A DNA stretch of 64,000 nt from Candidatus Komeilibacteria bacterium RIFOXYD1_FULL_37_29. GTDB lineage: Bacteria > Patescibacteriota > Patescibacteriia > UBA1558 > GWA2-36-10. A program made the translations under genes and the position numbers. This document shows, piece by piece, positions 6,953 through 57,523 of this stretch. The notes under the pieces were generated by a model. That model searched no databases. It was not told the origin of the DNA and saw nothing but the letters and a program-made list of their open reading frames with translations. Each line of letters starts with the position of its first letter. The first letter of the stretch is position 1. The stretch lies in NCBI GenBank assembly GCA_001818495.1, contig MHKS01000005.1, forward strand, positions 323,890 to 387,889, given 5' to 3'.

Positions 6953-8077
6953 ATGGTGGGTAAAAAAATAAAAGTTGTAATTGCCATAAATAATATGATA
7001 ATCGGTGGTGCACAAAAATTGGTTGTTGATCAATTTAAGTGTTTCAATCGGCAGAAATTTGATTATTCTCTTTTGATATTAGAAAAATTTCCTAGTCAGA
7101 AAGATTTTATGGATGAATTGCCCAAAGATATCCCTATTTATCAATTTGATTTTAAAAGTTTCCGAAATTTGGGAGAGTGGTTTAAAATTTTTAAAACTTT
7201 GAGAACTATAAAACCCGATGTGGTCCGCTCTAGTTTGTTTTTGACCAATACGGTGATCAGAGTATTAAAGCCATTTTTGGGTTATCAGGTCATCATTACA
7301 GAAAACAATACTGATGAAAGCAAAGGATTTTTAAAGATTTTGACAGATAAGATATTGTCTTATTGGACTTATAAAATAACCCCGGATTCTCAGACTGTTG
7401 CAGATTTTATTATTAAACAGGAAAATATTAATTATGATAAGTTTTTGACTATCTACAACGGAGTGGATATTAATGAAATAAAAAAGTATTTATCCTCTCT
7501 GCCAAAAAATGATATAAAAAAACACCTTGGTTTGGCCAAAGAAGACAAGGTAGTTTTAAATATCGCTCGGCTGGTTAAACAAAAAAATCATAAGCTACTA
7601 GTAGAAGCATTTGCTGATTTTTCTAAAAAGCATGATGATTATAAATTAGTAATAGTGGGTGACGGGGCGCTACTGCCAGAACTAAAAGAGCAAGCGCAAA
7701 AACAGGGGGTTGGTCATAAGGTATTTTTTCCAGGCGCTACCAAAGATTTGTATCAGTACTATTCTAGCAGTGATTTATTTGTGGTTAGCTCTACTCAAGA
7801 AGGATTTTGTTTGACAGCCGTCATGGCTTTGGCTTTTGGTATACCGGTAGTCGCCACCAAAGTAGCTGGTTTAGTAGAATATATTGAAGACAATTATAAT
7901 GGTCTCCTAACTTCTTATGACTTCAAAGAAATGTCCCAACAGATGTCCAAGCTGGCCAGCTTAGATAATGGAGAGAGGCAAATTTATAAGAAAAATTGCC
8001 AGACGACGGCTGACAATTTTGATATTAAAAAACACGCTCAGGCCTTTGAAGATTTATTTATAGCTAGTTTAAATTAA
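6953..8077 (+). CDS. GT4-family glycosyltransferase
   Basis: N-terminal IGGAQK motif; LVIVGDGALLPELKEQ...EGFCLTAVMALAFGIPVVATKVAGLVEYIEDNYNGLL. Confidence 0.75.
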   Translation: MVGKKIKVVIAINNMIIGGAQKLVVDQFKCFNRQKFDYSLLILEKFPSQKDFMDELPKDIPIYQFDFKSFRNLGEWFKIFKTLRTIKPDVVRSSLFLTNTVIRVLKPFLGYQVIITENNTDESKGFLKILTDKILSYWTYKITPDSQTVADFIIKQENINYDKFLTIYNGVDINEIKKYLSSLPKNDIKKHLGLAKEDKVVLNIARLVKQKNHKLLVEAFADFSKKHDDYKLVIVGDGALLPELKEQAQKQGVGHKVFFPGATKDLYQYYSSSDLFVVSSTQEGFCLTAVMALAFGIPVVATKVAGLVEYIEDNYNGLLTSYDFKEMSQQMSKLASLDNGERQIYKKNCQTTADNFDIKKHAQAFEDLFIASLN

Positions 8078-50092: not shown

Positions 50093-50211
50093 GCTCCTTG
50101 GTCGTAGACTGACTACGGACTACACTTGACTTTTTTTATATTTTTCTTTATAATTTAATCCGTTATTTATATATTGTTTAGCAGTTTGGCTGTTTTACCA
50201 ATATAAAGTGC

Positions 50212-50287
50212 CGAGATAGCTCAGCTGGTAGAGCAACGGTTTTGTAAACCGTCGGTCGCTGGTTCGAATCCAGTTCTCGGCTCCATC
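50212..50287 (+). tRNA. tRNA-Thr (anticodon TGT)
   Basis: Cloverleaf folded by hand: acceptor GCCGAGA/TCTCGGC, anticodon stem ACGGT/ACCGT with loop TTTGTAA, T-loop TTCGAAT, encoded CCA. Confidence 0.8.
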
Positions 50288-50311
50288 GATTATTTATTAA
50301 AATAACTTAAT

Positions 50312-50467
50312 ATGTCACAAGACAATTTAGCTAAATTAGAATGCACCCAGTGTCATACTATCAATTACCATGATCACCGTAATAAAAAAACGGTTAAGAC
50401 CAGGTTGGAAATGAAAAAGCATTGTAAGAGATGTAAGAAACACACTTTGCATAAAGAAACTAAATAA
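50312..50467 (+). CDS. rpmG: 50S ribosomal protein L33 (51 aa)
   Basis: [51 protein letters not shown]: CxxC...CxxC zinc ribbon and the C-terminal HTLHKE typical of L33. Too short for the ORF track. Confidence 0.7.
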
Positions 50468-50504
50468 ATAATCCCAGCCCATTTTGGGAGGGGTTATTTT
50501 TTAA

Positions 50505-50578
50505 GGGGGCGTAGTATAGTGGTAGTACAGGGGTCTCCAAAACCTCTAGCGTGGGTTCGATTCCTACCGCCCCTGCCA
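50505..50578 (+). tRNA. tRNA-Trp (anticodon CCA)
   Basis: Acceptor GGGGGCG/CGCCCCT(G.U), anticodon loop CTCCAAA, T-loop TTCGATT, encoded CCA. Classical tRNA-Thr...rpmG-tRNA-Trp arrangement. Confidence 0.75.
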
Positions 50579-50609
50579 AAAAGCAAGATATTAATTATCT
50601 TGTTTTTTT
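50574..50609 (+). terminator. Copy 1 of a ~35-nt motif: tRNA-Trp 3' end (TGCCAAAA) plus hairpin GCAAGATA-TTAAT-TATCTTG plus T7; tRNA terminator
   Basis: 7-8 bp stem, 5-nt loop and a T-run immediately after the tRNA CCA end. Confidence 0.55.
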
Positions 50610-50702
50610 GTATAGAGAAAAGCGGTCATTTTTATATAACCGCTAATTTTTTGAAGCCTGATGGCTGTTTATTTTTCAAGGAAGAAATTTCTTCCAGTAG
50701 AA

Positions 50703-51005
50703 TTAGGCTTTTTTTACTGGGAGTACTTTTATCCCTCCATTTTTTCTACACGCATCCATTTTAGAAGGCCAATTAAAAGAATCAACCCTTTCTTTACCGT
50801 TACCAAATCTTTTTGTATCAATTACTTCATACCATATTGGGCCGTAGTCTTTACCAAATAAAGGCTTAACCAGCCATGGTTGTGCTATAAAACGTGGTTC
50901 TGGTTTTTTGTGCTCATTCTTCTTTTTATCTTCTTTCTTTGCAAGATAACAAAGTAGTCGAAAGAATAGAGCGATAGCTATTGCTATGAGTATTAAGGTT
51001 GTCAT
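50703..51005 (-). CDS. Small N-terminally anchored hypothetical protein (100 aa)
   Basis: Good SD (AAGGGGG, 5 nt before the ATG on the minus strand); N-terminal TM LILIAIAIALFF, then a soluble Lys/Trp-rich domain; no family recognised. Confidence 0.35.
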   Translation of the reverse strand: MTTLILIAIAIALFFRLLCYLAKKEDKKKNEHKKPEPRFIAQPWLVKPLFGKDYGPIWYEVIDTKRFGNGKERVDSFNWPSKMDACRKNGGIKVLPVKKA

Positions 51006-51103
51006 TTTGACCCCCTTTCAAGAGGTTGTTGGTTAGAACAATTAGTAATATTTCAATGTGTCATAAAATAATTGTTTTGTCAACTGTTATATATCCTAAT
51101 CTA

Positions 51104-51140
51104 TGCCAAAAGAGCAAGATATTAATTATCTTGCTTTTTT
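51104..51140 (+). repeat. Copy 2 of the tRNA-Trp-3'-end/terminator motif (TGCCAAAAGAGCAAGATATTAATTATCTTGCTTTTTT). No upstream + strand gene to terminate.
   Basis: Near-identical to copy 1 (one indel) ~530 bp downstream in direct orientation. Confidence 0.5.
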
Positions 51141-51201
51141 GTATAAATTATTTAGTAAAATTATATTTTTGGGTAAATATATGTTATAATATAAAATATT
51201 A

Positions 51202-52050
51202 TTGTTTATGCTTATTAAAAGAAAAAAGGGTTTATTAATAGGCTTACCAGATGGAGGACATATTAGAGAGGCTACTTATGAGATTTTAAGGAAGTCTGGT
51301 TTTATGATTATAGATTACGGTGATACAAAGAGCAGAAAATATACAGCAAATTTGACTCTCCCTTCGGGAATAATTAGTGAAATTATTATAGATAAACCTA
51401 GAGATTTATTATATTCTTTGGCATTGGGTAAGGTTGATATGATAATAACTGGCAGTGATTATGTAAATGATTTTTGTTTATTCCATAATACTCTACAAAA
51501 AACTATTTTTAGTTCCGGGTGCAAATTAATTGAATCTGCTCATATTAATTTAGAACATCTCGGTTATCCAGGAGCACAATTAGGATTTATGGTCAGAAGA
51601 GATAATATGTATAATGATTTAGATGATCTTATACGGAAGGAAGATAAAATTATTTGTTATACGGAGTTTCCCATGATGGCTGCTCAATATTTATCACAAT
51701 TTAGCGCTTATCAAAAGCGATTTGGAAATATTTTACCATATGTAGTATCAAATTTTTCTGTCAATGGCTCAAACTCAGATATTACAATCATTTATTCCCA
51801 TGGAGCCACTGAGTCAAAAGCGGTTCTTGACAATTCATCTCTTATTTTTGAGCTTATATTAAGTGGGCGTACATTTAGGGATAATAAATTAAAATTGTTG
51901 TGTAATGTAGGAGGACCAATTTTTAATCTTATATATAAAAGAAATGATTCAGTCAATCAGCAGGGGATAGAAGAATTTGTAAAATTATTAGAGTCTACAG
52001 TACAGAGATATTCTGATTTATATATGATATCAAAAAAACATAATAAATAA
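51202..52050 (+). CDS. Hypothetical protein with weak resemblance to the ATP phosphoribosyltransferase (HisG)/type-II periplasmic-binding fold
   Basis: KKGLLIGLPDGGHIREATYEILRKSGF and LGKVDMIITGSDYV recall the HisG LxIALPKG and VDLGITGxD motifs. Sits in a very AT-rich context; low confidence. Confidence 0.3.
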   Translation: MFMLIKRKKGLLIGLPDGGHIREATYEILRKSGFMIIDYGDTKSRKYTANLTLPSGIISEIIIDKPRDLLYSLALGKVDMIITGSDYVNDFCLFHNTLQKTIFSSGCKLIESAHINLEHLGYPGAQLGFMVRRDNMYNDLDDLIRKEDKIICYTEFPMMAAQYLSQFSAYQKRFGNILPYVVSNFSVNGSNSDITIIYSHGATESKAVLDNSSLIFELILSGRTFRDNKLKLLCNVGGPIFNLIYKRNDSVNQQGIEEFVKLLESTVQRYSDLYMISKKHNK

Positions 52051-52129
52051 TTTATATTTTATTATAAAATATAAATTATCTTATTTTTTTGATACAATTA
52101 TATTAGTAATAATTAACATACATTTATTT

Positions 52130-52984
52130 ATGTTTAAATATAAAAAGATAGTTGAGGTTTTGAATGCAAGAACTACATTGGAAGGGGCTGGCGTTCACTT
52201 GCATCGTGGCTTTGGACAACCACAAATACCAAAATTTGACCCATTTCTTTTATTTGATGACTTTAGTGCTCAAGAACCAGCAGATTACTTAGCAGGTTTT
52301 CCTTGGCATCCTCATCGTGGGATTGAAACAGTAACGTATGTTCTGAAAGGCAAAGTAAATCATAAAGATTCTATTGGAAATTCGGGCCAGATTGCAGTTG
52401 GTGATGTACAATGGATGTCCGCTGGCTCAGGTATATTGCACGAAGAAATGCCCCAAGGGACAAGTGGTATGGTGGGATTCCAGTTGTGGGTAAATTTGCC
52501 AAAAAATAAAAAAATGTCAAAGCCAAATTATCAGGACATAAAGAAAAAAGATATTAGCGAAGTCTCACTTGGTAGCTATGCCACAGTAAGAACAATTGCT
52601 GGTAATTTTGGTGATATTAATGGGCCGGTTAAAGATATCGCAGCAGCCCCAATGTATTTGGATATAGAACTGGTGAATGGAAAGGATGTCATAATACCAA
52701 TTCCATCAACATACAACAGTTTTGTTTATATTATAGATGGTAATTTGGGCTTAGGATTTGATGAAGAAATTGTTTATCAAAAGGGAAATATTTTACATTT
52801 TGATAAGTCTGACGGCGATATATTTTTGAAAGCTGGCTCGACAGGGGCAAGGTTTTTATTAGCTTCTGGAAAACCACTCAATGAAACAATTGCTTGGAAG
52901 GGACCAATAGTCATGAATACCGAAGAAGAGCTAAATCGTGCTTGGCAGGATTTAGAAGATAACACGTTTATAAAAAACAAATAA
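52130..52984 (+). CDS. Pirin-family cupin protein
   Basis: HPHRGIETVTYVLKGKVNHKDSIGN...GDVQWMSAGSGILHEE matches the pirin N-terminal cupin metal site (HxH...H...E). Confidence 0.8.
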   Translation: MFKYKKIVEVLNARTTLEGAGVHLHRGFGQPQIPKFDPFLLFDDFSAQEPADYLAGFPWHPHRGIETVTYVLKGKVNHKDSIGNSGQIAVGDVQWMSAGSGILHEEMPQGTSGMVGFQLWVNLPKNKKMSKPNYQDIKKKDISEVSLGSYATVRTIAGNFGDINGPVKDIAAAPMYLDIELVNGKDVIIPIPSTYNSFVYIIDGNLGLGFDEEIVYQKGNILHFDKSDGDIFLKAGSTGARFLLASGKPLNETIAWKGPIVMNTEEELNRAWQDLEDNTFIKNK

Positions 52985-52990
52985 AAAATT

Positions 52991-53305
52991 ATGAAAACAT
53001 GTATGGCCTGTAGTATGCCTTTGGAAAAGGTAGAAGATATTGGTCTTGAAAATGAGAGTGGTATTTTTTGTAAATATTGCGTCAGTGATGACGGTAGCGT
53101 CAAAAGCTGTCAGAAAATATTTTTTGGTGGCGTACAGTTTTTTATGGGTGCTGTGCCAGGCACAGAACGGGCTTTGGCTGAGCGTTTGACTCGCAAAAAT
53201 ATGAAAGCTTTGTCTTATTGGCAAACTCATGAACATGAATGTTTAAATGGTTCAGAAGCTAGCGCAGAAGAGTATGACGAAGCGATGTCAAAGCTAGCAC
53301 AGTAG
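52991..53305 (+). CDS. Zinc-ribbon-containing hypothetical protein
   Basis: CMACSMP...CKYCVSDDGS: two CxxC pairs; no family recognised. Confidence 0.35.
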   Translation: MKTCMACSMPLEKVEDIGLENESGIFCKYCVSDDGSVKSCQKIFFGGVQFFMGAVPGTERALAERLTRKNMKALSYWQTHEHECLNGSEASAEEYDEAMSKLAQ

Positions 53306-53327
53306 TTGATTTTTTGTTGTTTTATTA

Positions 53328-53356
53328 TTGACATTTATAAATTTTTCTGGTATAAT
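53328..53356 (+). promoter_or_regulatory. Consensus sigma70 promoter TTGACA-17-TATAAT driving the cold-shock-protein gene through a ~155-nt 5'-UTR
   Basis: Perfect -35 and -10 hexamers with a 17-nt spacer read directly. Confidence 0.55.
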
Positions 53357-53515
53357 TAAGTAGCTTCTTAAGAGGTTTAAATAGTTTATTTTTCTTAAGG
53401 TTTTGGAGCTTATAGGAGGTAATTTCTATAAATGCTACAAAGTATAGTTGGTTTGAAATGTAGTCGGATTTCTAATTGCTATTGCAAATTAATTCATTAT
53501 ATTTACAAAACAATT

Positions 53516-53716
53516 ATGCAAGGAATTATAAAAAAAATCGTTGCTGATAAAAAAATTGGTTTTATCAGCCAAAAAGATGTCGAAAAGGACACTTTTTTTA
53601 GTAGCGAAAAACTTGATGGAGTAAAGTTTGAAGACCTTAAAGAAGGCGACACAGTTACTTTTGAAATTGAAGAAGGTGCCAAAGGTCCAGTGGCTGTTAA
53701 AGTTAAAAAAGCTTAA
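53516..53716 (+). CDS. Cold-shock-domain (CspA-like OB fold) protein, 66 aa
   Basis: Start at MQGIIKK (the track ORF starts at 53432). GIIKKIVADKKIGFISQ...DTFF....L.....LKEGDTVTFEIEEGAKGPVAVKV parallels CspA G.VKWFN..KGFGFI...DVF.H.....L.EGQ.V.F.IE.G.KGP.A.NV. Confidence 0.6.
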   Translation: MQGIIKKIVADKKIGFISQKDVEKDTFFSSEKLDGVKFEDLKEGDTVTFEIEEGAKGPVAVKVKKA

Positions 53717-53740
53717 ATAGTCTATTACATATTCTTTGAA

Positions 53741-53778
53741 AAATCGTTTGATAACGATTTTTCAAAGAATTGTAGGTT
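53741..53778 (+). terminator. 17-bp perfect hairpin (TTCTTTGAAAAATCGTT-TGAT-AACGATTTTTCAAAGAA) 25 nt after the csp stop; terminator or stabilising 3' stem-loop (no clean U-tract)
   Basis: Perfect inverted repeat read directly. Confidence 0.45.
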
Positions 53779-54083
53779 AGTAATTTTAATATCAAAAATA
53801 TCAAAAAAGATAAATTACATAAATTTGTAACTGGCGAGTCCAGATATTGTCAAAATTGCGGGCAAGAACCCAGTGAGCTATTTGAGGTTACACACAATAT
53901 TCAAAAAATACAGCAATTACAATATTGTAACAAATGTAAACTAGAGTATAAGGTAAAAGCTAAAGCAGGTTAAAATATTATTTTTAGTTAAAAAGGTTAT
54001 AAAATTGTCCCACAGTAACTACCAAAAAAGCATGATATATGTCATGTTTTTTTAGTAAGTTTAAATTATTAAGTATGAAGTGT

Positions 54084-54902
54084 TTAGGATTTTTTTGTAC
54101 AGACTGCCAATATATCCAAAGATTCATCAGTGTTTGGGCTGATATAAAAATCATCTACATTTAGGCTCTTAGTATAGTCAATTTTTTCCGGAGTATGTTT
54201 TTGAGTAATCAGACGCATTAAAAGGACTAGTTTTTGTTTCCATGATTCTGGCAATAGCAATCTTATTCCCAGCGGATCTAGACGTAATAATTTTTGTATT
54301 TTAGCTATTCTTTGTGTTTCTATTTTTTGTATACTTGGTGATCCGTAAATACCATAAATTTCAATTTTAGAAAATATTTGTTCAAGTGTTTGTCTTAATT
54401 CAAGACCATTATATTCTCGGACATGGAAATGGTTCCACGGTTTTTGTTGCGATTTAAGACGCATTTTTTTATTTGGGGTAGTAAAAATGCATATCCCATT
54501 TTTTTTGAGAACCCTAGATATTTCCTCTAAATATTTTTGGGCATTTTTAATATGTTCAATGACCTGTAATGAAATAACTATATCGAATGTTTCTGTAGCA
54601 AAAGGGATGTCTGTTCCGTTGTATATTTGAAATACACAGTTATTGGAGCCGTATTTTTTAGCTGCCCTGATTATAACTTCCTGTTCAACGTCAAGGCCGA
54701 TGGCACTATCTGAAACAGAGGATATGATATGCGTGCCATATCCTTCACCACAGCCAACATCTAAGACAGCGGCTTTTGGTGGTATGCGCTGGGAGCAAAA
54801 ATTATAAGCGAATACATGTCTTATGTACATTATATATTCATCAATAGACTTAAAGCTCTCTGGTATCATGCGCTCTCCTGTTTTGGAGATATTAGGTGTC
54901 AT
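54084..54902 (-). CDS. Class I SAM-dependent methyltransferase (Methyltransf_11/23)
   Basis: VLDVGCGEGYGTHII ... FDIVISLQVIEHI ... LKKNGICIFTTPN. Confidence 0.65.
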   Translation of the reverse strand: MTPNISKTGERMIPESFKSIDEYIMYIRHVFAYNFCSQRIPPKAAVLDVGCGEGYGTHIISSVSDSAIGLDVEQEVIIRAAKKYGSNNCVFQIYNGTDIPFATETFDIVISLQVIEHIKNAQKYLEEISRVLKKNGICIFTTPNKKMRLKSQQKPWNHFHVREYNGLELRQTLEQIFSKIEIYGIYGSPSIQKIETQRIAKIQKLLRLDPLGIRLLLPESWKQKLVLLMRLITQKHTPEKIDYTKSLNVDDFYISPNTDESLDILAVCTKKS

Positions 54903-54920
54903 AGTTTTTTGTTTACAATA

Positions 54921-56453
54921 TTATTTAAAATATTTTTGTAGAATTTGATTGTCCAAGGTATTTGGTGCTACATCTTCTATTGAAGCCAATGATTCAAGTA
55001 GTTTCTCCGCGTTGCCTTTAGTATCAATAGTTTTGACATCCAACTCTCCATCGGAGGCTAAAAATAAATAAACATAATTTGGTTCTTCAAATTCAGCAAA
55101 AACTACATTGTCAAAAACTGCCTTAAAAGTATTGACCAAACTTTTTAAATATCTGGGGTCAGATGACATATAACCCCACAGAGCTACCCGGCCGTCGGTT
55201 TTTAAGTGTTCTTTAGCGTAGCGAAAATATTCTATGGTATAAAGTGGTGAAGAATGAGCAATCATCGGATGTTCAATATCTATGACAATCACGTCGTATT
55301 TTTCTTGACTGGTCCGCAAAAATTCAGCGCCATCTTTGATGATAATATTAACTTTTGGGTCATCAATAGCATTGTTGGTATATTCTTTAAAAAATTGAGC
55401 CGCTTCGTAAATAACGGGATTTATTTCAGCCACTGTGACCTGATGAGGGTTATTATTTAACACTGAAGCCAAAGTAAAACCACAACCCAATCCGATATTT
55501 AAGACATCGGCCTCTGGCTTACCACCGAGCGCTCCGTCGGCGATTAAACTTTCTGACTGATGACTTAGGACAGAGCATTGCCCCCAATTATCAATATTTA
55601 GTATTTTGTCTAGACCTAGTTCAGTTTCTTCTTCAGTTACAGTTATTACTCCCCAAGGCGATGCCTTTTCCCAAAGTATGTCTTTTTGTCCTATAATGTC
55701 AATATTTTTGGATTGGCGATAAGGGTCTTTTATTGTAGCTAGATTTTTGGGTATAACATACATTTTTTGATTTCGGATAGCCAGTCCGGCGACTATAGTA
55801 AAAAGTAATATAAAGATTAGCCAAGCTAAGCGCAATTTTTTGCCAGCCGGAAAAACTATTAGCGCGGCTAAAATATTTAAGCTACCAGCCAGGACAATAG
55901 TAGCAGTATGGCCATAATTAGGCATAATAAAAAATCCGGCTAAAGCTGCTCCAGTGACTGATCCCAAAACATCCAAAGTATAGAGCCAGCCGATTCGACT
56001 GCTGATCTGATCATTTGGACCATCAATAATCATGGCAATGGCCAGAGGAAAAATAGCGCCCAAGAGCACTGTCGGGATTAATATAAAAATAGCCCCGCCG
56101 GTAAATTGTAATAGTAATGGCGAACTGATTAATTTGGCTAAGGCATCAAATAATTTTGGTAAATTAATAAATTGGCTTAATATCAGGATGCCGTAGAAAG
56201 CAATTGTTAATTGCAAGATACTAAAAACAAGACCGGTGGAGCTTATTCTTTTTTTAAAAATAGTCATCAGCGCCGCTCCTAATGACAGGCCACCTAAGAA
56301 AATTATTAAGACAATGGTGAGTGATGTTAGAGCGCTCCCGAAAAATAACAGCAAAATGCGAGAAGTAATCAGTTCATAGATCAAAGCACTGGCTCCGGAA
56401 AAAGCCGTCGCCAAAATTACCAAGCGCCAATTGTACAAATTTTGTTGTAGCAT
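54921..56453 (-). CDS. Fusion protein: N-terminal polytopic membrane domain (~8 TM) plus C-terminal spermidine/spermine-synthase-like (aminopropyltransferase fold) domain
   Basis: C-terminal VLNIGLGCGFTLASVL...VTVAEINPVIYEAAQ...YDVIVIDIEHP is a SpeE-like Rossmann signature; the N-terminus is hydrophobic and MFS-like. Confidence 0.6.
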   Translation of the reverse strand: MLQQNLYNWRLVILATAFSGASALIYELITSRILLLFFGSALTSLTIVLIIFLGGLSLGAALMTIFKKRISSTGLVFSILQLTIAFYGILILSQFINLPKLFDALAKLISSPLLLQFTGGAIFILIPTVLLGAIFPLAIAMIIDGPNDQISSRIGWLYTLDVLGSVTGAALAGFFIMPNYGHTATIVLAGSLNILAALIVFPAGKKLRLAWLIFILLFTIVAGLAIRNQKMYVIPKNLATIKDPYRQSKNIDIIGQKDILWEKASPWGVITVTEEETELGLDKILNIDNWGQCSVLSHQSESLIADGALGGKPEADVLNIGLGCGFTLASVLNNNPHQVTVAEINPVIYEAAQFFKEYTNNAIDDPKVNIIIKDGAEFLRTSQEKYDVIVIDIEHPMIAHSSPLYTIEYFRYAKEHLKTDGRVALWGYMSSDPRYLKSLVNTFKAVFDNVVFAEFEEPNYVYLFLASDGELDVKTIDTKGNAEKLLESLASIEDVAPNTLDNQILQKYFK

Positions 56454-56509
56454 ATTATAAATAGTATAGCATAAATTATGTTATTTTTGCAGATAAGTTT
56501 AGGTAAAAT

Positions 56510-56538
56510 ATTGACTATTATCCTAAATAGTTTATAAT
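56510..56538 (+). promoter_or_regulatory. Sigma70 promoter TTGACT-17-TATAAT for the small basic protein gene
   Basis: Read directly from the sequence. Confidence 0.5.
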
Positions 56539-56566
56539 TATTAAATAAATAATATATATAATATCT

Positions 56567-56686
56567 ATGGCAAAAAGAAGACATGCTTTCGGCCGTCAGC
56601 AAAAATCCAGTTCTCGTAAGACCAAGAAAAGACTGGAAACAAAAAAACAAATGCTGGAAGCCAAAGCCAAAAAGAAACACAAATAA
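56567..56686 (+). CDS. Small, highly basic 39-aa protein (MAKRRHAFGRQQKSSSRKTKKRLETKKQMLEAKAKKKHK), possibly ribosome- or nucleic-acid-associated
   Basis: Near-consensus promoter upstream and a hairpin terminator (copy 3 of the motif) downstream; too short for the ORF track; family not recognised. Confidence 0.35.
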   Translation: MAKRRHAFGRQQKSSSRKTKKRLETKKQMLEAKAKKKHK

Positions 56687-56712
56687 CACCTAATTTTCCA
56701 GCAATCTAGTTT

Positions 56713-56746
56713 TCAAAACAACAAGATGCTAATTATCTTGTTTTTT
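56713..56746 (+). terminator. Copy 3 of the hairpin/terminator motif (TCAAAACAACAAGATGCTAATTATCTTGTTTTTT)
   Basis: Variant of copies 1 and 2 (~80% identical over ~34 nt), with the same stem CAAGAT/ATCTTG and a T-run. Confidence 0.5.
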
Positions 56747-56782
56747 GATATACTATAGAAATAAAAATTAATTTTAAAAAAT

Positions 56783-57523
56783 ATGTCATTAGAAAATAAA
56801 ATAGCCATTGTTACGGGCGCCGCCATGGGTATTGGTTTGGGTATTGCCAAAGCTTTGGCTAAACAAAAATGCCAAGTAGTAGTGGCTGATATCAATTTGG
56901 CCGAGTGTCAAAAAGCGGCCAAAGAGCTGGAAGCTTTGGGAGCTAAAGTCTTCGCGGTTAAGTGTGATGTTAGTAAAAAATCAGATGTCACTAAGTTGTT
57001 TGAACAAACGATTAAAAAATTTGGTAAAGTGGATGTTTTGGTCAACAATGCCGGTATTTATCCTTTTGTCTCTTTGGAGAAAATGACCGAAGCAGACTGG
57101 GACAAGGTCATGGCAGTCAATCTTAAGAGTATTTTCTTGACTTGCAAAGAAGCATTGCGTCTCATGTCCTCTGGCGGAAGAATTGTTAATATTTCTTCCA
57201 TTGCTTCGCTGGTTGGTTTTGAAGGGTTAACTCATTATTGTGCTTCTAAGGGTGCTATAAATGGTTTTACCAGGGCTTTGGCTTTGGAGGCAGCTCACAA
57301 AAACATTTTGGTCAATGTGGTAGCTCCGGGGGCTATTGAAACACCAGGCGTTAGTCAAGGTATGAGCGCTGATCTTAAAAAACAGACAACAGCCGCTATC
57401 CCACTAGCTAGGATGGGTCAGCCGGCGGACATTGCTGGAGCCGTAGTATTTTTGGCTTCTGATGATTCTGCCTATATTACTGGTCAGGTGATAGTAGTAG
57501 ATGGTGGTTGGACTTTACGTTAA
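56783..57523 (+). CDS. SDR-family oxidoreductase (FabG-like 3-oxoacyl-ACP reductase fold)
   Basis: TGAAMGIGLGIA (TGxxxGxG); NNAG; catalytic S...YCASKGA (YxxxK). Confidence 0.85.
   Translation: MSLENKIAIVTGAAMGIGLGIAKALAKQKCQVVVADINLAECQKAAKELEALGAKVFAVKCDVSKKSDVTKLFEQTIKKFGKVDVLVNNAGIYPFVSLEKMTEADWDKVMAVNLKSIFLTCKEALRLMSSGGRIVNISSIASLVGFEGLTHYCASKGAINGFTRALALEAAHKNILVNVVAPGAIETPGVSQGMSADLKKQTTAAIPLARMGQPADIAGAVVFLASDDSAYITGQVIVVDGGWTLR

Follow-up and report, generated by a model that had tools for sequence, protein, structure and literature searches.

The DNA analysed here, a 64,000-nucleotide stretch of contig MHKS01000005.1 from Candidatus Komeilibacteria bacterium RIFOXYD1_FULL_37_29 (hereafter the window), carries a tRNA-Thr/rpmG/tRNA-Trp unit whose last gene, an intact tRNA-Trp, is followed by a short hairpin element that recurs almost unchanged downstream. 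It is proposed that the first copy of this element terminates the unit and that the second is the relic of an insertion directly 3' of the tRNA; taken together, the repeat and the comparison with related genomes mostly fit a decayed tRNA-linked genomic islet. The features of the conserved unit, the repeat and the inserted block are the following:

50210-50285, plus strand: tRNA-Thr(UGU), found by ARAGORN and as an Rfam tRNA (72.8 bits), which opens the conserved tRNA-Thr/rpmG/tRNA-Trp unit
50312-50467, plus strand: rpmG, ribosomal protein L33 (Pfam PF00471, 2.7e-15)
about 50469-50500: hairpin terminator of rpmG, with a terminator-like site at 50472-50489
50505-50578, plus strand: tRNA-Trp(CCA), intact, with an encoded CCA end (ARAGORN; Rfam, 63.1 bits)
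50574-50614, plus strand: repeat copy 1, made up of TGCCA (the tRNA 3' end), AAAAAG, the hairpin at 50584-50602, seven T and GTATA
50621-50644, minus strand: intrinsic terminator of the open reading frame ORF100, with a 9-bp stem containing 4 GC pairs (terminator scan), convergent with copy 1
50703-51005, minus strand: ORF100, with a hydrophobic anchor at its N-terminus and a ribosome-binding site of the GGGGG type
51104-51145, plus strand: repeat copy 2, made up of TGCCA, AAAGAG, the hairpin at 51115-51133, C followed by six T, and GTATA
51208-52050, plus strand: HisG-like gene, divergent, within the inserted block (Pfam HisG, 1e-13)
52130-52984, plus strand: pirin, within the inserted block (Pfam Pirin and Pirin_C)
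52991-53305, plus strand: Zn_ribbon_2 protein (Pfam PF12674, 5.4e-7), the final gene of the inserted block

The core of the element is a 19-nt hairpin, CAAGATATTAATTATCTTG, which is exact in copies 1 and 2 and returns with two loop mismatches in a third copy at 56722-56740; the repeat unit is described by the patterns CAAGAT-N7-ATCTTG plus a T-run, and TGCCAAAAGAG. At up to 3 mismatches 0.12 matches per window are expected by chance, none of 100 shuffles reached the observed 5, and the 64-kb window holds no additional copy of the hairpin. Copies 1 and 2 form a 41/42-nt direct repeat (39 identical out of 42 aligned positions) with a spacing of 530-531 bp, and they enclose a 490-bp module in which ORF100, with its own terminator, is the sole gene. 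The alignment of the copies bears out the first-pass annotation of this DNA, which had reported the recurrence 530 bp on and a variant near 56713. TGCCA of copy 1 is the 3' end of tRNA-Trp. All copies fold as an A-tract, a stem and a T-tract, with energies of -11.8 to -18.6 kcal/mol and z scores of -4.8 to -8.3 (RNA fold; -13.6 kcal/mol and z -7.1 for copy 1, -18.6 kcal/mol for copy 2 and -11.8 kcal/mol for copy 3), a shape that corresponds to predicted bidirectional intrinsic terminators. Transcription of the tRNA operon is predicted to end at copy 1. Copy 2 is positioned between divergent genes with no co-oriented gene upstream, and the remark in the annotation that it terminates nothing is correct as a statement of position. 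The spacer between TGCCA and the hairpin is AAAAAG in copy 1 and AAAGAG in copy 2; the latter also stands beside tRNA-Trp in two related loci (L060 and L102), indicating that copy 2 is a real derivative of the tRNA-Trp 3' junction. Judged from these features, copy 2 appears to be an att-like relic duplicate of the tRNA-Trp 3' end plus terminator.

Were the hairpin simply a favoured generic terminator, its three copies could be independent instances of one stereotyped structure. Such re-use is in keeping with the fold, since every copy has the A-tract/stem/T-tract form of a terminator, and with copy 3, which terminates an unrelated conserved gene and yet is identical to copies 1 and 2 at 17 of 19 positions. 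The distribution of the motif argues against it: only three copies exist in 64 kb (~60 genes), all of them inside 6.2 kb, and the stems of the other terminator-like sites at 46-64 kb are unrelated to it. In 185,579 species genomes (GTDB representatives, the source species not being among them) a scan for the exact pattern gave 44 matching stretches, in which one relative (L049) has the motif at its tRNA-Trp locus and the other matches fall in unrelated genomes. When metagenome contigs were scanned with the loop left free to vary, 68 stretches were obtained, including five family-type hits with the family flanks, all at tRNA-Trp loci (L093, which is the L049 contig and has two copies; L095; L102, with two copies; and L122); the remaining ~60 matches are without these flanks and lie in unrelated organisms. 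The motif is confined to the tRNA-Trp locus in the window, in one GTDB relative genome (L049) and in three relatives of one metagenome (L093, L095 and L102), and copy 2 has, with nothing to terminate, the TGCCA and the spacer of the tRNA-adjacent copies of other species. The argument of the annotation against a generic terminator is upheld by these scans of the window and its relatives, which found the motif at the tRNA-Trp locus only, and we regard stereotyped re-use as largely refuted and extremely improbable. A genome-wide terminator family, or a dispersed repeat like the repetitive extragenic palindromes (REP) or miniature inverted-repeat transposable elements (MITE), was likewise ruled out by the restriction to one locus in the window, the relative genome and the metagenome. 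Rfam gave no RNA family for the motif or the locus besides the tRNAs.

The locus was compared with nine informative relatives, taken from DnaJ-anchored and motif-anchored loci, whose DnaJ is 68-82% identical to that of the window; in the closest relatives by DnaJ, P0002 and P0007, the contigs stop short of tRNA-Trp. All nine keep the order tRNA-Thr/rpmG/tRNA-Trp. The hairpin lies directly 3' of tRNA-Trp in L060, L102 and L095, behind an AAAGAG spacer (AAAGCA in L095) and with variable loops (TTCAG, TTACT) on an invariant stem; the closer relatives therefore have it as the native terminator of this unit. In L049 it also follows tRNA-Trp, separated by a 105-nt MITE-like insertion, and the more distant relatives L133 and L134 have different hairpins at this place. 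Such conservation needs no special explanation, because the rpmG terminator hairpin, which is also kept in L049, L060, L063 and L134, is conserved at least as widely. In L102 codon 6 of the rpmG gene itself (5778-5626, minus strand) is TGA and not TTA (Leu) as in the other species; recoding, a pseudogene or an error of sequencing may lie behind this.

The first-pass annotation had supposed that the insert occupies the place of secE-nusG. No secE, nusG, rplK, rplA or tuf was found in the window by tblastn, and none of these genes stands behind tRNA-Trp in the eight relatives with a locus extending past it; that rpmG/tRNA-Trp and secE-nusG are uncoupled is therefore a trait of the clade and not an effect of insertion, and displacement by the insert is rejected. 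What does follow tRNA-Trp, up to a gene for a short-chain dehydrogenase (SDR), is different in every species (cross-BLAST). The SDR gene, with 69-74% identity to the relatives, is the common right-hand anchor of this variable region in the window, L049, L060 and L102. A gene for a membrane protein fused to a SpeE-type domain is shared by the window, L060 and L102 at ~60% identity and in differing arrangement, and the cold-shock gene csp of the window has 91% identity to that of L060. The features of the window to the right of the inserted block are:

53306-53515, plus strand: ancestral right flank, with a T-rich stretch, the csp promoter (TTGACA-17-TATAAT at 53328-53356; promoter scan, 12/12) and a long 5' untranslated region
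53516-53716, plus strand: csp, cold-shock domain (Pfam CSD)
54084-54902, minus strand: S-adenosylmethionine (SAM)-dependent methyltransferase (Pfam Methyltransf_11, 1.6e-21)
54921-56453, minus strand: fusion of a membrane part and a spermidine-synthase domain (Pfam Spermine_synth)
56568-56687, plus strand: gene for a very basic 39-aa protein, conserved in L060 (alignment)
56713-56750, plus strand: copy 3, with the hairpin at 56722-56740 (CAAGATGCTAATTATCTTG) and six T
56783-57523, plus strand: SDR (Pfam adh_short_C2, 1.4e-74)

The extent of the insert can be read from L134 (DnaJ 68%), in which tRNA-Trp, a terminator and the csp promoter are contiguous in an empty-site-like arrangement. Behind the tRNA-Trp terminator, L134 has a T-rich stretch, TTGACA-17-TAT(G/A)AT and then TAATTAGCTTCTTAAG, a sequence that aligns with the window from 53306 onward and with L060. 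The right edge is placed at ~53305 because collinearity with the post-terminator sequence of L134 begins there. Relative to the L134 arrangement, the predicted insert would thus comprise 50579-53305, about 2.7 kb, with copy 1, ORF100, copy 2 and the HisG-like, pirin and Zn_ribbon_2 genes. An islet reaching to ~56700, as first annotated, is not retained: its edge lies instead at ~53305, and csp, the SpeE fusion and the small basic gene are shared with relatives. The csp gene, considered as cargo, was rejected as such on its presence in L060 at 91% identity.

The same comparison changes the status of copy 3, which had been read as an att boundary. The 39-aa gene and its terminator are orthologous in L060, where the hairpin reads CAAGGT...ACCTTG vs CAAGAT...ATCTTG in the window, a compensatory double change, and the sequence to the right of copy 3, GATATACTATAGAAATAA, corresponds to the conserved promoter region of the SDR gene. 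Because of the L060 orthologue with its compensatory stem change and the SDR promoter flank, copy 3 is taken as an ordinary, vertically inherited terminator, in all likelihood the native terminator of the small basic-protein gene, and the boundary role is rejected. Its likeness to copies 1 and 2 (17/19) would reflect either old paralogy or gene conversion.

The identity of the genes was described correctly in the first-pass annotation, whose list (HisG-like, pirin, zinc ribbon, Csp, methyltransferase, membrane/Spermine_synth fusion and basic ORF) agrees with Pfam and the sequence. Its description of the enclosed DNA as conspicuously AT-rich fared less well in a comparison of GC content and codon usage. 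In 1-kb steps the GC content of the locus is 0.29-0.38 vs 0.30-0.44 for the window, and only the HisG-like gene, the most AT-rich of the window (GC 0.298, GC at third codon positions (GC3) 0.203, z -2.6), stands out; the short csp gene likewise has a low GC3. None of ORF100, pirin, Zn_ribbon_2, the methyltransferase and the SpeE fusion departs from the window mean by more than 1.5 standard deviations. ORF100 has no family in Pfam, PHROG, NCBIfam or PADLOC, and its sole match among 5.8 billion proteins is itself (an ORFan). The HisG-like protein has 10 homologues only, all in contigs like those of the candidate phyla radiation (CPR), and the two that were examined have other contexts, one beside prfB/ftsEX and one beside an NYN-domain gene. 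It scores 54.6 bits vs an NCBIfam hisG cut-off of 75.75 and is probably not a canonical ATP phosphoribosyltransferase. All 23 contigs read with an identical HisG-like protein also carry ORF100, and the uninterrupted junction is seen only in the distant L134. Comparison with phages gave no match and comparison with plasmids matched only the conserved pirin core; matches of the motif or the inserted block to viral contigs were discarded as chance matches in coding sequence.

Three further observations concern the genes to the right of the insert. Downstream of csp, at 53790-53973, there is a conserved small frame with CxxC...CxxC motifs (…SRYCQNCGQEPSELFEV…YCNKCK…) that lacks an ATG, GTG or TTG start; homologous sequence follows csp in L060 and the csp-type promoter in L134. 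The 39-aa basic protein, MAKRRHAFGRQQKSSSRKTKKRLETKKQMLEAKAKKKHK, has no Pfam or NCBIfam family; its gene has a strong promoter of its own at 56511-56538 and differs in position relative to the SpeE-fusion gene in L060. The methyltransferase (54084-54902) matches the PADLOC model mad2 (mads_2) at 4e-17 over the SAM-binding domain, which is probably a generic domain similarity, with no further defence components close by.

Second copies of the junction, remnants of it and a range of occupants are found at the tRNA-Trp site of the relatives. In L102 the second copy reads cgtcccacaatctCTGCCA-AAAGAG-hairpin and lies 923 bp from the first; cgtcccacaatctCTGCCA is a decayed tRNA-Trp T-arm/acceptor end, and the two copies enclose a gene for a CsaA-type tRNA-binding protein (NCBIfam, 1e-51). 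L122 has CCCTGCCA-AAAGAG-hairpin, and L049 has two hairpin copies, 954 bp apart, around an EamA-like gene. In L061, ggttcgaacatcgtcccatagCCCCTGCCA is followed by an L134-type terminator and a csp-type promoter; this junction of a pseudo-tRNA end with the native downstream flank (P arm, core and native B') would be the structure expected of an attR, and L060 has a further decayed form of the same type of remnant. In L063 and L064 a 481-aa large serine recombinase (LSR; Pfam Resolvase, Recombinase and Zn_ribbon_recom) starts at the CCA of tRNA-Trp. It matches the phrog_95 integrase at 3.7e-80 and is followed by genes without assignment and by a phage-type HNH endonuclease gene. DNA of 50-58% GC begins a few bases past the hairpin in L049, L095, L122 and L061, in genomes that otherwise have 30-38% GC. 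Because second copies, remnants, a serine integrase and GC-rich DNA occupy the site in relatives, tRNA-Trp is a clade-wide insertion hot spot.

Some of these occupants have features of their own. An 80-nt inverted repeat (99-100%) that includes the CTGCCA of the tRNA flanks the serine integrase in two independent assemblies (L063 8697-10263 and L064 2448-4014), and could mark an invertible integrase cassette or an unusual att arrangement. The GC-rich DNA (L049 5215-6730; L095 ~820-590, minus strand; L122 1617-1712; L061 ~7925-8040) has small minus-strand ORFs, one family of which is common to L049 and L061 at 41-43% identity; no family was found for these ORFs in Pfam, PHROGs, NCBIfam or PADLOC. 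A MITE-like element of ~100-125 nt, with the ends TTCGACTCC... and ...GGAGTCGAA(TG), sits directly behind the CCA end of a tRNA gene in each of two species, the gene being tRNA-Trp in L049 (4119-4215) and tRNA-Thr in L095 (~1795-1680, minus strand).

We propose that the hairpin acts as the intrinsic, bidirectional-type terminator of the tRNA-Thr/rpmG/tRNA-Trp unit in a Komeilibacteria-like clade of CPR bacteria, and that the junction of tRNA-Trp CCA, spacer and terminator is a recurrent recombination and integration hot spot of this clade. In the lineage of the window, ~2.7 kb (50579-53305) would have accumulated between tRNA-Trp and the ancestral csp promoter, and in the latest step a self-contained ORFan module (ORF100 and its own terminator) would have been placed beside the tRNA. 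This step would have duplicated ~42 nt, from the final 5 nt of the tRNA through spacer, hairpin and T-run to GTATA, with the outcome that copy 1 terminates the tRNA operon and copy 2 persists as a non-functional relic equivalent to attR. Starting from the observed repeat, with its tRNA-derived 5' end, its restriction to one locus, its variable surroundings in the clade and the integrase at the same site in a relative, we infer that the duplication came about by recombination with incoming DNA: a fragment with a tRNA-3'/terminator-like site probably, though by no means certainly, recombined with the chromosomal tRNA-Trp/terminator junction. The route may have been site-specific, by an integrase that acted in trans or was lost afterwards, or homologous, by RecA and a Campbell-type recombination of a circular fragment. 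An att duplication at tRNA-Trp had already been put forward in the first-pass annotation; its account of copies 1 and 2 and the idea of a hot spot stand, and its account of copy 3, of the extent and AT-richness of the cargo and of the relevance of secE-nusG does not.

Several points weigh against this proposal. In the window the unambiguous duplication of tRNA sequence is limited to 5 nt, and the resemblance upstream of TGCCA (ATCCTAATCTA to TTCCTACCGCCCC) is weak. The composition of the cargo is host-like, the HisG-like gene excepted, and no ORF100-free allele occurs among the 23 contigs read with an identical HisG-like protein. No phage or plasmid source was detected for the motif or the inserted block, and Pfam finds no integrase or recombinase among the genes at 50.5-57.5 kb, in line with the annotation, which had described the islet as lacking a surviving integrase; only L063 and L064 have one at this site. 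Large serine integrases, the sole integrase type seen at the site, normally leave no 40-nt direct repeats, so that a recombinase of the L063 type alone would not explain the 42-nt repeat. The similarity of the copies within a genome could also stem from gene conversion.

A plain tandem duplication would dispense with an incoming att site: tRNA-Trp and its terminator would have been doubled by slippage or unequal crossing-over, the second tRNA would have decayed to 'TCCTAATCTA-TGCCA', and ORF100 would have arisen or entered between the copies. Partial and complete tRNA-Trp duplications are indeed common at this locus (L049, L095, L102 and L133), and loop or right-flank variants are shared within a genome (GTATA in copies 1 and 2 of the window, GATATACTAAA in both copies of L102 and GTATAAAA in both copies of L049); moreover, ORF100 is without homologues, so that a donor cannot be demonstrated. 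We nevertheless consider this origin rather unlikely. In copy 2 almost nothing is left of the tRNA-like part, while the adjoining 37 nt on the right match copy 1 at 95%, which is hard to reconcile with their having been duplicated together; the hairpin loops of L102 differ at 4 of 5 positions between identical stems and flanks, suggesting separate origins or long-term selection; and the L061 remnant couples a pseudo-tRNA end to a different, L134-type terminator. By analogy with integron sites, the unit of pseudo-tRNA-Trp 3' end, AAAGAG and hairpin might instead be the recombination site of a clade-specific cassette-capture system, attC/attI-like but unrelated, in which one- or two-gene cassettes ending in the unit would be inserted beside tRNA-Trp by a recombinase acting in trans or by a terminator/hairpin-directed mechanism, perhaps coupled to the GIY-YIG/tRNA-Trp module of the relatives described below; we hold this to be very improbable.

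That module is found in L049 (3646-4118), L095 (~1305-868, minus strand) and L133 (~18050-17565, minus strand) and is missing from the window. At its start is a 5' pseudo-half of tRNA-Trp into which two GC-rich hairpins of 24-25 nt with TCGCGA loops are set. One of them follows GGTAGTACA, the other the anticodon CTCCA, and both have a 3-nt repeat (ACA or CCA) on either side. Covariation is seen in the stems (for example, CCAGCCCC/GGGGCTGG vs CCCGCTCC/GGAGCGGG). Beginning ~35 nt beyond the pseudo-half are an ORF of 78-81 aa with a GIY-YIG domain (Pfam, 1.4e-13) and a complete tRNA-Trp. Rfam detects no group I intron in the tRNA-Trp modules of the relatives, and a paper on tRNA introns of Patescibacteria mentions neither Trp nor GIY-YIG (PMC13011429). 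L102 (5538-5365, minus strand) and L133 (17640-17460, minus strand) have, behind a complete variant tRNA-Trp, the 3' part of the native tRNA-Trp (GGTCTCCA-hairpin-CCAAAACC...CCA), which bears the same GC-rich hairpin in its anticodon loop; it appears that an incoming copy split the resident tRNA-Trp of these two loci or took its place.

Homing-endonuclease turnover offers another origin for the repeat. A GIY-YIG gene with its own tRNA-Trp copy would cut or convert the resident tRNA-Trp region, repair or co-conversion tracts would yield partial duplications of tRNA and terminator and capture foreign DNA, and the window would hold the scar after loss of the endonuclease module. The conserved order of pseudo-half, GIY-YIG ORF and complete tRNA-Trp in L049, L095 and L133 and the native 3' halves in L102 and L133 are consistent with such a process. 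As precedent, the GIY-YIG endonuclease SegB of phage T4 is sited in a tRNA gene cluster and drives the preferred inheritance of the region (PMC2330249). Neither the GIY-YIG gene nor its hairpins are present in the window, and the duplications of the window lie 3' of the tRNA, on the other side from the module, which stands 5' of an intact tRNA. In addition, the ORF of 78-81 aa is a bare catalytic domain and could be a housekeeping YhbQ-like nuclease. For these reasons we hold a homing origin to be improbable.

Integron attC cassettes and CALIN arrays (clusters of attC sites lacking integron integrases) resemble the locus in having single-gene units bounded by a hairpin repeat beside a fixed chromosomal site with no integrase nearby. 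In contrast to these, the hairpin of the window is a perfect 7-8-bp stem with a 5-nt loop and a T-run, as is typical of terminators, and two copies only bound cargo. The window locus has no R''/L''-L'/R' architecture, no GTTRRRY core and no IntI, and an integron/attC reading was rejected on architecture. Elements of large serine recombinases of the phiC31/Bxb1 type are closer in one respect, since a phage-type LSR stands exactly at the tRNA-Trp CCA in L063 and L064, and the same site is therefore used by a real integrative element. However, LSR integration yields 2-bp crossover sites and not 40-nt direct repeats, no LSR is present in the window, and the integrase of L063 is flanked by the unusual, perfect 80-nt inverted repeat. 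The closest analogue of the module in L049, L095 and L133 is T4 SegB, likewise a free-standing GIY-YIG gene amid tRNA sequence (PMC2330249). The module of the relatives differs from it in being chromosomal in CPR bacteria and not in a phage, in having a pseudo-tRNA 5' half with covarying hairpins and in having a GIY-YIG domain that is predicted from sequence. This combination of GIY-YIG ORF and tRNA-Trp with structured pseudo-tRNA hairpins is the most unusual feature encountered, and it belongs to the relatives and not to the window.

In tRNA-gene-linked islands with a P4-type tyrosine integrase, the 3' end of the tRNA gene is duplicated as an att site. The window is like these islands in that the insertion lies directly 3' of an intact tRNA, the distal direct repeat opens with the tRNA 3' nucleotides, related species carry other cargo at this tRNA, and units accumulate in tandem beside the tRNA. 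It is unlike them in that the islet is without an integrase, the unit added last holds just one 100-aa ORFan (0.5 kb), the repeat takes in only ~5 nt of the tRNA and consists mainly of the downstream terminator, and the composition is host-like. The locus is a new occurrence, in a little-studied phylum, of the classical tRNA-linked islet and reveals no new kind of element or mechanism. The comparison of ten loci indicates that the reduced genomes of CPR/Patescibacteria keep a classical tRNA-linked plasticity hot spot at tRNA-Trp, the traffic of which includes ORFans, AT-rich and GC-rich foreign genes, a prophage-like element with a serine integrase and small repeat elements. The tRNA-Trp locus should be useful in the annotation of metagenome-assembled genomes, where relic terminators and att-like scars can be recognised, and as a place to study gene gain in very small genomes.

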